A stretch of DNA of 24,000 bases, taken from Gottschalkia acidurici 9a (GTDB taxonomy: Bacteria > Bacillota > Clostridia > Tissierellales > Gottschalkiaceae). The number at the start of each line of letters is the position of its first letter. The first letter of the stretch is position 1. The notes below the pieces were generated by a model. It ran no database searches. It worked only from the letters and a program-made list of their open reading frames with translations, and was not told where the DNA came from. The DNA lies in NCBI RefSeq assembly GCF_000299355.1, contig NC_018664.1, positions 655,115 through 679,114 of the forward strand. The letters run 5' to 3'. Made by a program: the position numbers and the translations under genes. Below are positions 5,489 to 23,036 of the stretch, in pieces.

Positions 5489-7369
5489 TTGGATAATATA
5501 GAAATAAGAAACTATAAGAAAATGGGAGCACACATACGAACTGAGAACAAGCAGAATGGCGTAAGATTTTCAGTATGGGCTCCTAATGCTAGACAAGTAA
5601 GCGTGGCTGGAGATTTTAATGATTGGAACGGTCGTAAGCATAAAATGATAAAGGACAAAGATACTGGAATGTGGTCACTATTTATACCAGGATTAAAAGA
5701 AGGAGATTTATATAAATATGATATAGAAGATGTAAATGGAAAAAGAGTTTTAAAGTCAGATCCGTATGGATTTCTACATGAAAAAAGACCAAATACAGCT
5801 TCTATAGTATACGACTTATTTGAATATCAATGGAATGATGTAGGGTTCAGAAGAGGAAAAAGAGTAAATAAAATGTATGAAGGACCTATAAATATATATG
5901 AAGTTCATCTAGGATCATGGAAAAGGAAAAAGGACGGAGAATTCATGACTTATAGGGAATTAGCAGATGAACTTGTAGAATATACACTAGACATGGGATA
6001 TACGCACATAGAAATCATGCCTATTATAGAGCACCCATACGATGGATCATGGGGCTATCAAGGTGTCGGATACTATTCAGTGACTAGTAGATACGGTGAA
6101 CCTAGAGATTTTATGTACTTTGTAGATAAGTGTCACCAAGCTGGTATAGGTGTTATATTGGACTGGATACCTGCCCACTTTTGTAAAGACATACATGGAC
6201 TAGCTAAATTTGATGGAACTTGTTTATATGAATATGGAAATCATATGAAAGCTGAAAACTATCAGTGGGGCACACTGAATTTCGATTTAGGAAGAGATGA
6301 GGTTATTAGCTATCTGATATCTAATGCAATATTTTATATAGATGTATTTCATATAGATGGACTAAGGGTAGATGCAGTTAGTAGTATGTTATATTTAGAT
6401 TTTTGTAAAGAGCACGGTCAATGGATACCAAATAGATATGGTGGAAGAGAAAATTTAGAGGCTATTGAATTTATGCGAAAAATGAATGAAACAATATATG
6501 AAAATTATCCTAACACATTTATGATAGCAGAAGAATCCTCAGCATGGCCTTTGGTAAGTAGTCCAACTTATTTAGGAGGGCTAGGATATAACTATAAGTG
6601 GAATATGGGATGGATGAACGACATATTAGAGTATATGGAGAAAGAAACCATACATAGAAAATGGCATCATAATTTGATTACCTTTTCTATTATGTACACG
6701 TACTCTGAAAACTTCATACTACCATTATCTCATGATGAAGTTGTCCACGGTAAGAAATCACTACTAGATAAAATGCCCGGAGACTATTGGCAGAAATTTG
6801 CTAACTTAAGATTACTCTATGGTTATATGATGGGACATCCAGGTAAAAAGTTGTTATTTATGGGTGGAGAATTTGGACAGTTTATAGAGTGGAAATATGA
6901 TGATGAGCTAGATTGGTTTTTACTAGATTATGATATGCATGAGAAAGTTAAAAACTACACTAGGGATTTAAATGCCCTTTACAAAGAGGAAAGATCGTTA
7001 TGGGAATTAGACCATAAGCAAGAGGGATTTGAATGGATAGATCCTAATAACAGTGAACAAAGTATAATCACTTTTATGAGAAAAGGTAAGAAAGAAAGAG
7101 ACTTATTAATTATAGTGTGTAATTTTACTCCTCAGGTATATGAAAAATATAAGATAGGAGTTCCTTTTCTAGGAGAATATCAAGAAGTGTTTAATAGTGA
7201 TTATGAAAAGTATGGAGGCTCGAACTTTATTAACAAAGAAATATTAGTATCAGATAATGCTAAATGGAATAATCAAAAATATTCCTTAGAAATAAATATA
7301 CCACCTCTTGGGGTAGCCTATTTCAAACTAGAGAATTTAATTGAAAAGAGTACGGAAAAAAAGGGGTAA
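5489..7369 (+). CDS. glgB: 1,4-alpha-glucan branching enzyme
   Basis: 626 aa, GH13 branching-enzyme pattern (VWAPNA..V.V.GDFNDW, GYQGVGYY, DWIPAHF, GLRVDAV, IAEES, SHDEVVHGK). TTG start at 5489 lies 29 nt after the pgi stop. The SD spacing is long, so the alternative start ATG 5522 is possible. Confidence 0.93.
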   Translation: MDNIEIRNYKKMGAHIRTENKQNGVRFSVWAPNARQVSVAGDFNDWNGRKHKMIKDKDTGMWSLFIPGLKEGDLYKYDIEDVNGKRVLKSDPYGFLHEKRPNTASIVYDLFEYQWNDVGFRRGKRVNKMYEGPINIYEVHLGSWKRKKDGEFMTYRELADELVEYTLDMGYTHIEIMPIIEHPYDGSWGYQGVGYYSVTSRYGEPRDFMYFVDKCHQAGIGVILDWIPAHFCKDIHGLAKFDGTCLYEYGNHMKAENYQWGTLNFDLGRDEVISYLISNAIFYIDVFHIDGLRVDAVSSMLYLDFCKEHGQWIPNRYGGRENLEAIEFMRKMNETIYENYPNTFMIAEESSAWPLVSSPTYLGGLGYNYKWNMGWMNDILEYMEKETIHRKWHHNLITFSIMYTYSENFILPLSHDEVVHGKKSLLDKMPGDYWQKFANLRLLYGYMMGHPGKKLLFMGGEFGQFIEWKYDDELDWFLLDYDMHEKVKNYTRDLNALYKEERSLWELDHKQEGFEWIDPNNSEQSIITFMRKGKKERDLLIIVCNFTPQVYEKYKIGVPFLGEYQEVFNSDYEKYGGSNFINKEILVSDNAKWNNQKYSLEINIPPLGVAYFKLENLIEKSTEKKG

Positions 7370-7388
7370 GCAACAGTCAAGATAAATA

Positions 7389-7404
7389 TATAAAACTATA
7401 TAAA
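7389..7404. repeat. Left copy of the 16-bp imperfect inverted repeat flanking the IS
   Basis: TATAAAACTATATAAA versus the reverse complement of 9209-9224, TATAAAACTCTATAAA (15/16 identical). Confidence 0.45.
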
Positions 7405-7448
7405 TATTTTAAGTTTATTGTTTGCTATTTATATAGATGGTCATACAA

Positions 7449-7981
7449 ATGAAATATTATTCAATAGGTGAGTTTTCAAAATTAACTGTAAAGGCAGTAT
7501 AGACTTTAAGAAGTTTGGATAATGATGGACAATTAAAGCTACATCATATATCTAAAGGTAGTTTTAGATGATATTCCAAAGAACAACTTAATCATTTTGG
7601 GGGAATTAAAAGAGAAAGACAACTAAATAAAAAGATAATAGGGTATTGTAGAGTCAGCTTTCACGAACAAAAAGATGATTTGGAACGTTAAATTGAAAAT
7701 GTTAAAACATATATGATATCTAATTCAGAAGTTGAAGAGATAGTAATTCTATATAAAGATAGATAATTAAGATTTGACTTTGAAATCATAGAAAATCTAT
7801 GTAATGAGTATGATACTACTATTGAAATTATAGATAATACTGAAAAGATAGAAGAACAGAATTAGTTTAGGATTTAGTTCAAACTGTTACACTCTTTAGT
7901 AAGTTAGAAGGTAAGAAAGTAAATAAAGCAAAGAAAATGATTAAGGAGCTATTAGAGGATGATACTGGCGAAGAAAGTTAG
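7449..7981 (+). pseudogene. tnpA: IS607-type tnpA (MerR-like HTH plus serine recombinase) pseudogene
   Basis: Translation reads MKYYSIGEFSKLTVKAV*TLRSLDNDGQLKLHHISKGSFR*YSKEQL...IIGYCRVSFHEQKDDLER*IENVKTYM..EEIVILYKDR*LRFDFEIIENLCNEYDTTIEIID...EEQ then (frameshift) LV*DLVQTVTLFSKLEGKKVNKAKKMIKELLEDD. Stops are at 7500, 7569, 7689, 7764 and 7868, with a -1 frameshift near 7860. The segment between ERQIE... and ...YKDRL is about 30 codons shorter than expected. Confidence 0.8.
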
Positions 7982-9074
7982 AATTATACCTAATACAGAA
8001 GAAGAACAACAACTTTGGAAATCTGTTGGAACTGCAAGATTTATATATAACTGGACACTTAAAAGACAAGAAGAGAACTATGAAAATGGTGATAAATTTA
8101 TAAGTGATGGAGATTTAAGAAAAGAAATCACTTTAATGAAGCAAACAGAAGAATATAAATGGCTTAAAGGAGTGTCTAACAATATAGCAAAACAGGCAGT
8201 AAAAGATGCTTGTAATGCTTATAAAAGATTCTTTAAAGGATTAGCAGATAAGCCAAGATTTAAAAGCAAAAGAAGAAGCAAGCCATCATTTTATAATGAC
8301 AATGAAAAACTAAAAGTTAAATATAAACAGATTCTTATAGAAAAAGTAGGTTGGATTAAAACATCAGAACAAATACCAATGGATGTTAAGTATACTAATC
8401 CAAGAGTAAGTTTTGATGGGAAGTACTGGTATATATCTGTAGGAATTGAGAAAAAATATCCCAAAATAGAATTGACTGGTGAAAGCATAGGTATAGATGT
8501 TGGAATTAAAGATCTTGCCATATGCTCTAATGGAATGGTTTTTAAAAATATTAATAAAACAAGGTTAGTAAAGAAATTAGAAAAAAGATTACGTAGGTTG
8601 CAACGTAAAGTATCAAGAAAGTATGAATTAAATAAAGAAGGGAGGAAGTTCGTCAAAACAAGCAACATTATAAAACTTGAAAAGCAAATTAGATTACTTC
8701 ATAGAAAGTTATCTAATATTAGAAACAACCACTTACACCAGGCAACTACTAAGATAGTGAAAACCAAGCCATCAAGAGTAGTAATGGAAACACTTAATAT
8801 AAAAGGAATGATGAAGAATAAACATTTATCAAAAGCTATAGCCAAACAAGGGTTGTATGAGTTTAAAAGACAACTTCAATATAAATGTGAATACTATGGG
8901 ATTGAATTTATTGAAGCTGATAAATGGTATCCATCATCAAAGACATGTAGTGAGTGTGGTCATTTGAAAGCTAAATTATCACTATCAGAAAGAACCTATA
9001 TCTGTGAAGAATGTAAAACTATAATAGATAGAGATTTAAATGCATCAATTAATTTAAGCAGATATTCAGCATAA
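7959..9074 (+). CDS. tnpB: TnpB (OrfB) RNA-guided endonuclease-family protein, apparently intact
   Basis: 371 aa with no lesions. RuvC-I is IGIDVGIKDLA (D180, 8496-8498), RuvC-II is VVMETLNIKGM (E277, 8787-8789), RuvC-III is IIDRDLNASINL (D359, 9033-9035), and the zinc finger is CSECG...CEEC (C330/C333/C349/C352). GGAG lies 10 nt upstream of the ATG. Confidence 0.93.
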   Translation: MILAKKVRIIPNTEEEQQLWKSVGTARFIYNWTLKRQEENYENGDKFISDGDLRKEITLMKQTEEYKWLKGVSNNIAKQAVKDACNAYKRFFKGLADKPRFKSKRRSKPSFYNDNEKLKVKYKQILIEKVGWIKTSEQIPMDVKYTNPRVSFDGKYWYISVGIEKKYPKIELTGESIGIDVGIKDLAICSNGMVFKNINKTRLVKKLEKRLRRLQRKVSRKYELNKEGRKFVKTSNIIKLEKQIRLLHRKLSNIRNNHLHQATTKIVKTKPSRVVMETLNIKGMMKNKHLSKAIAKQGLYEFKRQLQYKCEYYGIEFIEADKWYPSSKTCSECGHLKAKLSLSERTYICEECKTIIDRDLNASINLSRYSA

Positions 9075-9244
9075 CTACTAAAACAGTTATGTTTGAGGTG
9101 TAGGAAACGTTGTATCCGAAGTTAAGCCCTCGGAGTGTTATATCAAACGAAAGTAGTAGGTTCTTAGAACTATAAAATCGGACATAATGAACAGGGAATT
9201 AAACAAGCTTTATAGAGTTTTATAAGGTTTTGGCAACGGGATAT
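9075..9244 (+). ncRNA. Candidate omegaRNA (reRNA) scaffold plus guide at the IS right end; the 5' boundary is unknown and may lie inside the tnpB 3' end
   Basis: There are 155 nt of non-coding DNA directly 3' of tnpB, where TnpB guide RNAs are encoded. Visible local stems include 9075-9103 (ctac/gtag plus aaac/gttt) and 9115-9134 (tccga..tcgga around agttaagccc). There is possible long-range pairing of ctacta (9075-9080) with tagtag (9153-9158). No covariance evidence is available. Confidence 0.35.
9209..9224. repeat. Right copy of the 16-bp imperfect inverted repeat flanking the IS
   Basis: TTTATAGAGTTTTATA is the reverse complement of 7389-7404 with one mismatch. Confidence 0.45.
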
Positions 9245-9247
9245 TTA

Positions 9248-10417
9248 ATGGAAACTAAAAAGAAAGAGTGCATAGCAATGATACTGGCAGGGGGACAAGG
9301 AAGTAGGCTAGGAACTCTAACTAAGAACTTAGCTAAACCAGCAGTACCATTTGGCGGTAAATATAGAATAATAGACTTTACACTTAGTAACTGCAGTAAT
9401 TCAGGAATTGATACAGTTGGAATCTTAACACAGTATCAGCCACTTATACTAAATAGTCATATAGGGATAGGTAGACCATGGGACTTAGATAGACGTAAAG
9501 AAGGTGTTACACTATTACCACCATATGTAGACGGTAAAGGTGGGGAGTGGTACAAGGGAACAGCGAATGCTATATATCAAAATATATATTATATAGATCA
9601 GATAAAACCTGAATATGTGATTGTATTATCTGGAGATCATATATACAAAATGAATTATTCAGAAATGATAAATTATCATAAGGAAAGTAATGCAGATGCT
9701 ACTATAAGTGTAATAGAGGTTCCTTTAGACGAAGCAAGTAGGTTCGGAATTATGAATACCGATAACAACGATAAAATATATGAATTTGAAGAAAAACCTA
9801 AAGAGCCTAAAAATAATTTAGCATCTATGGGAATATACATATTCAACTGGGATGTACTAAGGCAGTATCTAATAGAAGATGAAAATAACAGCAATTCAAG
9901 TCATGACTTTGGAAAAGATATAATACCTAAGATGGTTAGTGACGGAAAAGAAATCTATGCATATAGGTTCAAAGGATATTGGAAAGATGTCGGAACTATA
10001 GAAAGCTTCTGGGAAGCTAATATGGACTTACTATCTGAGATGCCTGAGTTGAGCTTATATGAAAGTAATTGGAAAATATACTCTGAGAACACAAACTACC
10101 CCCCAAGTCATATAGCCGTAGAGAGCGAAGTGAATAGTTCACTGATAAATGAAGGATGTTCAGTTTCAGGTAAAGTAAAAAACTCTATTCTTTTTCAGGG
10201 AGTTAGTATTGGAAGAAACTCTGTGATAAAGGATTCTTTAATATTTCCGAATGTAGAAATAGGTGATAACGTGACTATAGAGAAAGCTATAATAGGAGAA
10301 AATAGTAAAATTTATGATGGAAAGAAAATTGGACAAAAATACAATGACTATAAAGAGACTAGCTATGAAATATCACAAAGTGGAATATTAGTAATAGGAG
10401 AAAATAGTATCATATAG
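9248..10417 (+). CDS. glgC: Glucose-1-phosphate adenylyltransferase, catalytic subunit
   Basis: [41 protein letters not shown] is the canonical GlgC N-terminus. The ATG at 9248 is preferred over the track's TTG at 9230, which would reach into the IS right flank. The SD is only weak (GGGA 9238-9241). Confidence 0.92.
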
Positions 10418-22789: not shown

Positions 22790-23036
22790 AGTAAGCTAAA
22801 GCTATGATAGGACGAGTAAATTAGATGTAGTCTATAGAGAGGGGTTGCCTGGGCTGGAAGCACCCTAGATGAAGCTGATTGAAAACTACCCTTGAGTTGA
22901 GCCCGAAAGGGATATCCGTTGATGACGTTATAATCATTAGAGAAAACTATGTAAAATATATAGTTTTAAATTAGGGTGGTACCGTGTGAATATATAACTC
23001 TCACCCCTAGAACTTCTAGGGATGAGAGTTTTTTTA
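22790..23036 (+). promoter_or_regulatory. T-box riboswitch leader (threonine-specific) controlling thrS
   Basis: Elements seen are: Stem I AGAGA (22836-22840); a specifier loop with AGUA on the 5' side and GAAA-ACU-A on the 3' side (ACU Thr codon, 22885-22887); the T-box AGGGTGGTACCGTG (22973-22986) with UGGU for the tRNA acceptor end; and a terminator hairpin. Confidence 0.85.
22998..23036 (+). terminator. T-box attenuator terminator
   Basis: ctctcacccctag pairs with ctagggatgagag (one mismatch), followed by TTTTTTT. Confidence 0.8.

Follow-up and report, generated by a model that had tools for sequence, protein, structure and literature searches.

A RAGATH-18 guide-RNA gene at the right end of an IS607-family element between glgB and glgC of Gottschalkia acidurici 9a, with a predicted guide overlapping the glgC start codon

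We report that the DNA that ends the IS607-family element between glgB and glgC in Gottschalkia acidurici 9a very probably specifies the guide RNA of the element's own TnpB, with a scaffold at 9065-9239 and a guide at approximately 9240-9259, and that this guide covers the glgC start through the habit of the family of targeting Shine-Dalgarno (SD)-like motifs. All positions refer to the window, i.e. the whole stretch of 24,000 nucleotides that was analysed (contig NC_018664.1, positions 655,115 to 679,114 of the forward strand), unless genome positions are indicated. An earlier sequence-only reading had proposed that the right end of this element encodes a guide RNA for TnpB, a claim that is borne out by a RAGATH-18 match and by conserved right ends. 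The same reading had the guide consist of flanking host sequence overlapping the glgC translation-initiation region, and this also holds, at other coordinates than those it gave. The features are collected in Table 1.

Table 1. Features of the element, its predicted guide RNA and the adjoining glg sequences (positions in the window; a colon separates the two strands of a helix)
Feature	Position	Strand	Remarks
Left flank AAGGGG	7361-7366	+	Ancestral glgC Shine-Dalgarno; TAM-like motif; GG crossover dinucleotide at 7365-7366
IS607-family element	7367-9239	+	1873 bp; same orientation as the glg operon; without target-site duplication
tnpA (serine recombinase) pseudogene	7449-7958	+	Several in-frame stops, no ORF listed; 3' limit approximate
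tnpB	7959-9074	+	371 aa; intact RNA-guided nuclease gene; stop at 9072-9074
H0 5' hairpin	9065-9076:9085-9097	+	From the MFE fold; encloses the tnpB stop codon
H1 hairpin	9103-9105:9115-9117	+	GG/CC to CC/GG swap in 10-12 of 24
Pseudoknot	9108-9112 (CGUUG):9234-9238 (CAACG)	+	95% paired; long-range pairing predicted by RNAalifold
RAGATH-18 scaffold core	9127-9198	+	RF03064 match; P1, P2 and P3 covary
RAGATH-18 P1	9127-9130:9193-9196	+	98% paired; 1 of 4 pairs compensatory
RAGATH-18 P2	9135-9139:9181-9185	+	100% paired; 5 of 5 pairs compensatory
RAGATH-18 P3	9148-9150:9178-9180	+	82% paired
3' hairpin in the TTTATARRG repeat region	9208-9214:9221-9227	+	92% paired; 2 pairs compensatory
Right-end terminus CAACGG	9234-9239	+	CAACG (9234-9238) is the 3' pseudoknot strand; GG (9238-9239) is the crossover dinucleotide
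Predicted guide	9240-9259	+	First variable flank; the glgC ATG (9248-9250) and the former glgB stop TAA (9246-9248) lie inside it
glgC (glucose-1-phosphate adenylyltransferase)	9248-10417	+	Intact; Pfam NTP_transferase 4e-72; proper SD now missing

The identity of the RNA follows from a covariance-model search, which the sequence-only reading had put forward as a check and which gave a match above the curated cut-off between tnpB and glgC. Specifically, Rfam RAGATH-18 (RF03064) matches 9127-9198 on the + strand with 68.3 bits (gathering cut-off 44.9, E 7e-13, model positions 1-71); this was the one significant match when 7000-9700 was scanned, and rescanning the whole window gave the same match. 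The motif begins at 9127 on the same strand as, and directly 3' of, the IS607-type tnpB, an arrangement that is repeated at the other copies; of the 10 RAGATH-18 matches in the genome, all of which follow a tnpB gene or remnant on its 3' side, 8 exceed the cut-off. RAGATH-18 together with conserved 5' and 3' flanks constitutes the guide RNA ('reRNA') of IS607 TnpBs, with a scaffold of 174-187 nt and a guide made up of the variable sequence past the 3' flank, for which 20 nt is optimal in ISFba1 (Ren et al. 2024, PMC11061315). At 175 nt the scaffold described here matches the published size, and the RNA is an ordinary further member of the RAGATH-18/IS607 family described in 2024. The sole other above-threshold Rfam match in the window is a T-box leader at 22795-23011 (+ strand; RF00230, 102.1 bits).

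Within the window the glg genes are ordered glgB (5489-7369), 1.87 kb of foreign DNA, glgC (ATG at 9248), glgD and glgA. Both boundaries of the foreign DNA were set by alignment to four other copies in the same genome, and on the left the likeness to these copies starts after the GG at 7365-7366. The element carries GG at 7365-7366 and 9238-9239, with the flank not duplicated, in agreement with IS607 elements, which have GG ends, insert at GG and lack inverted repeats and target duplications (Chen 2018). Judged by these ends, and because sibling copies keep an intact TnpA with MerR helix-turn-helix (HTH) and resolvase domains, the element is assigned to the IS607 family. Its tnpA is a pseudogene, a frequent state that applies to 30% of the TnpAs in a published survey (PMC11061315). 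Two sibling copies, C (genome positions 1781111-1783080) and D (2417922-2419905), carry tnpB genes that are 98% identical to each other and an intact tnpA (211 aa, MerR HTH plus resolvase) overlapping the tnpB start, and are likely the autonomous transposase source in the genome. Copy B (genome positions approximately 813895-815384) is 5'-truncated, its sequence starting within the remnant of tnpA, immediately downstream of a pilin-like gene. An intact tnpB (370 aa) and the right end are retained in this copy, no TAM can be read since its left end is lost, and the ATG of a gene for a membrane protein, perhaps a prepilin peptidase, follows after 9 nt. Moreover, many members of the family in other genomes have a broken tnpB and a recognisable RAGATH-18 motif and right end.

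The tnpB product has the Pfam HTH_OrfB_IS605, OrfB_IS605 and Cas12f1-like TNB domains and scores 327.9 bits against NCBIfam guided_TnpB (cut-off 100). Its best PDB match is 8iaz_A (E 1.7e-76), and D180, E277 and D357, i.e. the D-E-D triad, and the CxxC...CxxC residues align with the catalytic and zinc residues of that chain. We take 8iaz_A to be, probably, the TnpB of ISFba1 (the chain has 384 aa vs 387 aa in the paper by Ren et al.).

The right end was located by aligning five close copies in the genome itself and 47 junctions from 20 of the 151 genomes of the order. Conservation is unbroken through ...GGTTTTGGCAACGG and ceases after 9239 in all copies; the right end thus lies at 9239 (...GGCAACGG) in the five copies of this genome as well as at the junctions of the 20 genomes, and all copies diverge from 9240 onward. 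This is the pattern that had been anticipated for a guide boundary, a conserved scaffold followed by a divergent flank, with the boundary at 9239. The end had been put at about 9224, which is 15 nt too early, and the continuation of conservation past 9224, which the sequence-only reading had itself named as counting against its proposal, is what we find, up to 9239. Since conservation runs to 9239, the guide proposed earlier, 9225-9244, consists mostly of scaffold: 9225-9239 is conserved and bears one strand of a covarying pseudoknot, and this pseudoknot independently marks 9234-9238 as scaffold. The invariant G9239 may serve as guide position 1; in that register copies A and D have exactly AGGAG, followed by G, on their left. 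The guide predicted at 9240-9259 has a unique match within the window. The 165-nt right end is 94-96% identical among copies whose tnpB genes differ by a dS of 0.26-0.34, and it is the best-conserved portion of the element.

The minimum free energy (MFE) fold of the scaffold is not better than those of shuffled sequences (z = -0.36, not significant, a comparison that is uninformative for an AU-rich RNA), and covariation counts were therefore used. Pairs were counted on an alignment of 24 homologues from 12 genomes. Apart from the RAGATH-18 core, a two-tier H0 hairpin is present just 5' of an invariant UGUA in about 20 of the 24 homologues, with unrelated stem sequences. The pseudoknot has as its 5' strand the CGUUG (9108-9112) in the loop of H1, and its pair 9112:9234 is G-C in 14 of the 24 sequences and A-U in 8. 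The stems named in the sequence-only reading did not withstand this count: 9075-9103 is paired in only 53-54% of the alignment cells, and the long-range helix of 9075-9080 with 9154-9159 (given as 9153-9158) in 43%, while 9115-9134 reaches 73% and is broken in 10 of the 24 homologues, exactly those in which the partner strand in H1 is flipped, and was therefore assigned to the wrong partner. The 3' flank of the RAGATH-18 motif varies between 39 and 84 nt among the elements, owing to a varying number of TTTATARRG-like repeats; besides forming arms of the RNA hairpin, these repeats are probably also TnpA-binding subterminal repeats at the DNA level, a role suggested by analogy with Chen 2018. 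Moreover, the start of the guide, GGAUAU (9239-9244), can pair with GUAUCC (9112-9117, including the 3' strand of H1) and thereby lengthens the pseudoknot in the MFE fold; this is probably a chance match of the flank of this particular copy, and it could make the guide less accessible.

The position of the guide over a start codon is explained by where the family inserts. At 37 of the 47 right-end junctions (79%), which stem from related elements and are thus not statistically independent lineages, a start codon that opens at least 60 codons follows 4-10 nt past the end (mode 7), and with a threshold of 30 codons the count is 41 of 47. As controls in the genome itself, again with at least 60 codons, the corresponding values are 7.1% at all GG, 5.6% at ACGG and 42.6% at AGGAGG; that the junctions exceed the AGGAGG control is probably due to the loss by purging of insertions that fell inside genes. 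The left flank is SD-like in all 11 elements with a left end that could be placed (AAGGGG, AGGAGG twice, GGGGG, AGAGG twice, GGGGGG, GGAGG, AGGGG twice and GAGGG). Among these, the sibling copies have AGGAGG, GGGGG and AGGAGG. The seven from other genomes, all conforming to RGRGG, are those of 20 extra elements for which a left-end motif search gave a position, with 13 remaining unplaced. The TAM of the IS607 TnpBs tested so far is AGGAG or GAGGG (PMC11061315). With AGGAG being the SD core and the recombinase targeting GG, the element comes to lie between the SD and the ATG, co-oriented with the gene, and the guide covers the glgC ATG because the family integrates at the GG of SD-like motifs, 6-9 nt ahead of start codons. 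The start-codon overlap is a family-wide by-product of the SD-like target motif and not specific to glgC. Our literature search found no paper stating a preference of IS607 or RAGATH-18 elements for ribosome-binding sites.

Once the flanks of the element are rejoined (...AAAAAGGGG/GATATTTAATGG), a GGGGGA Shine-Dalgarno precedes the glgC ATG by 7 nt, and this ATG overlaps, as TAATG, with the TAA (9246-9248) at which glgB ended ancestrally. The uninterrupted glgB-glgC junction was compared in family-level relatives, two of which read AGGAGG-tagatat-ATG and AGGGGGA-ttgaaaag-ATG, a layout like that of the rejoined flanks with a spacing of 7-8 nt. With the 16S tail of the organism itself, the predicted SD:anti-SD duplex for glgC amounts to -4.1 kcal/mol now vs -11.3 kcal/mol for the rejoined flanks, and to between -8.8 and -10.6 kcal/mol for glgB, glgD and glgA. 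The current glgB stop (TAA at 7367-7369) is supplied by the left end of the element, so that glgB ends two codons early; the rejoined flanks would add Asp-Ile up to the TAA at 9246-9248. As the sequence shows, the insertion took away the glgC SD and the stop/start overlap with glgB, an effect that requires no TnpB activity, and the lost TAATG overlap had probably coupled the translation of glgB and glgC. A pattern scan of metagenome contigs for the exact 24-nt rejoined junction gave 0 hits, and an empty-site allele was not found; the genus holds this genome only, an exact look-up of GlgC returned no record, and the closest GlgC elsewhere is 77% identical. Neither a promoter-like nor a terminator-like site was found on the + strand between tnpB and glgC, and glgC is therefore probably transcribed through the element.

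How the predicted guide RNA would be expressed, processed, bound by TnpB and used in homing can be outlined by analogy with characterised relatives. The guide RNA would be cut from a transcript reading through tnpB and then be bound by the intact TnpB, and after excision the TnpB-RNA complex would cleave the empty site (AAGGG or AGGGG plus the guide match), with recombination restoring the element. Excision would need TnpA in trans from copy C or D, since tnpA is dead in this copy; the left ends of these two copies are approximately 72-75% identical to that of this element. The left flank here, AAGGG or AGGGG, departs from the published AGGAG and GAGGG (two siblings have AGGAG(G) and one has AGGGG(G)), and in ISFba1 a single change in the TAM was enough to abolish cleavage (PMC11061315), which makes homing competence at this site uncertain. 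The occupied site is preceded by CAACG or AACGG, unlike the TAM-like flanks, and self-cleavage is therefore not expected. Targeting of the glgC mRNA by pairing with the guide was considered and rejected, since the guide has the same sense as this mRNA and therefore cannot pair with it.

Among known systems the element is like ISFba1 (PMC11061315) in having a TnpB of approximately 370-390 aa with the same RuvC triad positions, a RAGATH-18 core between conserved 5' and 3' motifs, a scaffold of about 175 nt, a guide formed by the variable right-end flank, and a G-rich SD-like TAM at the left flank. It differs in the lengths of the flanks of the motif (3' flank of 41 nt here vs 64 nt; 5' flank of 62 nt here vs 37 nt) and in the left flank (AAGGG/AGGGG here vs AGGAG/GAGGG). 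The pseudoknot, in which the loop of H1 pairs with the five terminal bases of the scaffold, does not obviously correspond one-to-one to the positions reported for PK1 and PK2 of ISFba1. The TnpB of ISDra2, an IS200/IS605 element, likewise has its guide RNA encoded at the 3' end of tnpB and the right end, with a guide of approximately 16-20 nt taken from the flank, and serves to cleave the empty donor joint. ISDra2 differs in its HUH tyrosine transposase with a single-stranded DNA intermediate, in its AT-rich TAM TTGAT and in the lack of a RAGATH-18 motif, and we know of no reported preference of it for ribosome-binding sites. In relatives the 5' end of the guide RNA is processed by TnpB itself (Nety 2023, PMC10278001). 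Finally, CboIStron, an IS607 IStron, has a right-end RNA with two mutually exclusive fates, the balance between which is shifted by TnpB binding (Zedaveinyte et al., bioRxiv 10.1101/2023.11.20.567912). It is likewise an IS607 TnpB element within host transcripts and is the nearest precedent for a cis effect on a host gene. In CboIStron guide-RNA formation competes with group I intron splicing inside coding genes, whereas the element here has no intron, and the competing process would, hypothetically, be translation initiation inside the guide.

Being structured and placed just before a metabolic gene, the RNA could also be taken for a host leader of glgC, e.g. a riboswitch or an attenuator, that follows tnpB by chance. 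An RNA with the same ends trails tnpB at 10 sites in the genome, before unrelated genes, it is missing from the glgB-glgC junction of the relatives, and a terminator-like site, as noted, was not found between tnpB and glgC; a leader function has close to no probability, and we rejected it on the distribution of the copies. That the element is an inert relic, i.e. a stranded copy whose TnpB and RNA are now idle and whose conservation stems from selection during an earlier spread, would fit the destroyed tnpA, the left-flank TAM that is unlike the published ones and the many members of the family with a broken tnpB in other genomes. Moreover, the tnpB dN/dS between copies of 0.16-0.19 (dS 0.26-0.34) does not tell selection at this locus apart from selection that acted in the source lineage. 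We nevertheless regard such idleness as unlikely, given that tnpB has an uninterrupted frame and retains its catalytic and zinc residues, that no portion of the element is better conserved than the right end, and that the element is probably transcribed within an operon with intact downstream genes.

The sequence-only reading went on to propose that TnpB, in processing its own transcript, cuts the glg mRNA just before glgC and thereby couples glgCDAP expression to TnpB activity, with 9225-9244 as the guide. The element is indeed co-oriented inside the operon, with no + strand terminator- or promoter-like site before glgC, TnpB is known to process its own mRNA (Nety 2023, PMC10278001), and binding of an IStron TnpB to its omegaRNA inhibits splicing and so alters a host transcript, which makes a cis effect conceivable. 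The guide on which this proposal was built is wrong, however, 9225-9239 being conserved scaffold with a covarying pseudoknot strand, and self-processing by TnpB is documented for the omegaRNA 5' end (Nety 2023, PMC10278001), which here would be near 9065-9088, approximately 150-185 nt upstream of glgC, and not right before it. The same geometry is found at about 80% of the junctions, before unrelated genes, and there is therefore nothing specific to glycogen genes in it, while the effect that can be measured, the loss of the SD, needs no TnpB activity. Coupling by cleavage in front of glgC is thus improbable, somewhat more so than the idle state of the element considered above.

Competition over the start codon itself would be a different route to coupling. 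A mature guide RNA that extends 10-20 nt past 9239 would have its 3' end inside codons 1-4 of glgC, and a transcript that has matured into guide RNA, or to which TnpB is bound, could not serve at the same time for translation starting at the glgC ATG. By analogy with CboIStron, loading of TnpB on the nascent guide and loading of ribosomes at the start codon might be mutually exclusive, with translation of the host gene following TnpB occupancy, a possibility that we rate low. Within the same scheme, the bound complex could alternatively, after 5' processing, stabilise the downstream mRNA at its 5' end.

More generally, the analysis contributes 47 junctions from 20 genomes to the pattern that the RAGATH-18 TnpB family lands inside ribosome-binding sites, as its SD-like TAM predicts. 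For the organism, the loss of the SD and of the stop/start coupling in its glycogen operon may lower the synthesis of GlgC. If competition between TnpB and ribosomes were true, it would amount to a family-wide coupling to host genes, here to glgC and glycogen synthesis, analogous to the conflict between intron and guide in IStrons, and glg, as a non-essential operon, would be a convenient place for asking whether a TnpB-RNA complex interferes with the translation of a host gene.
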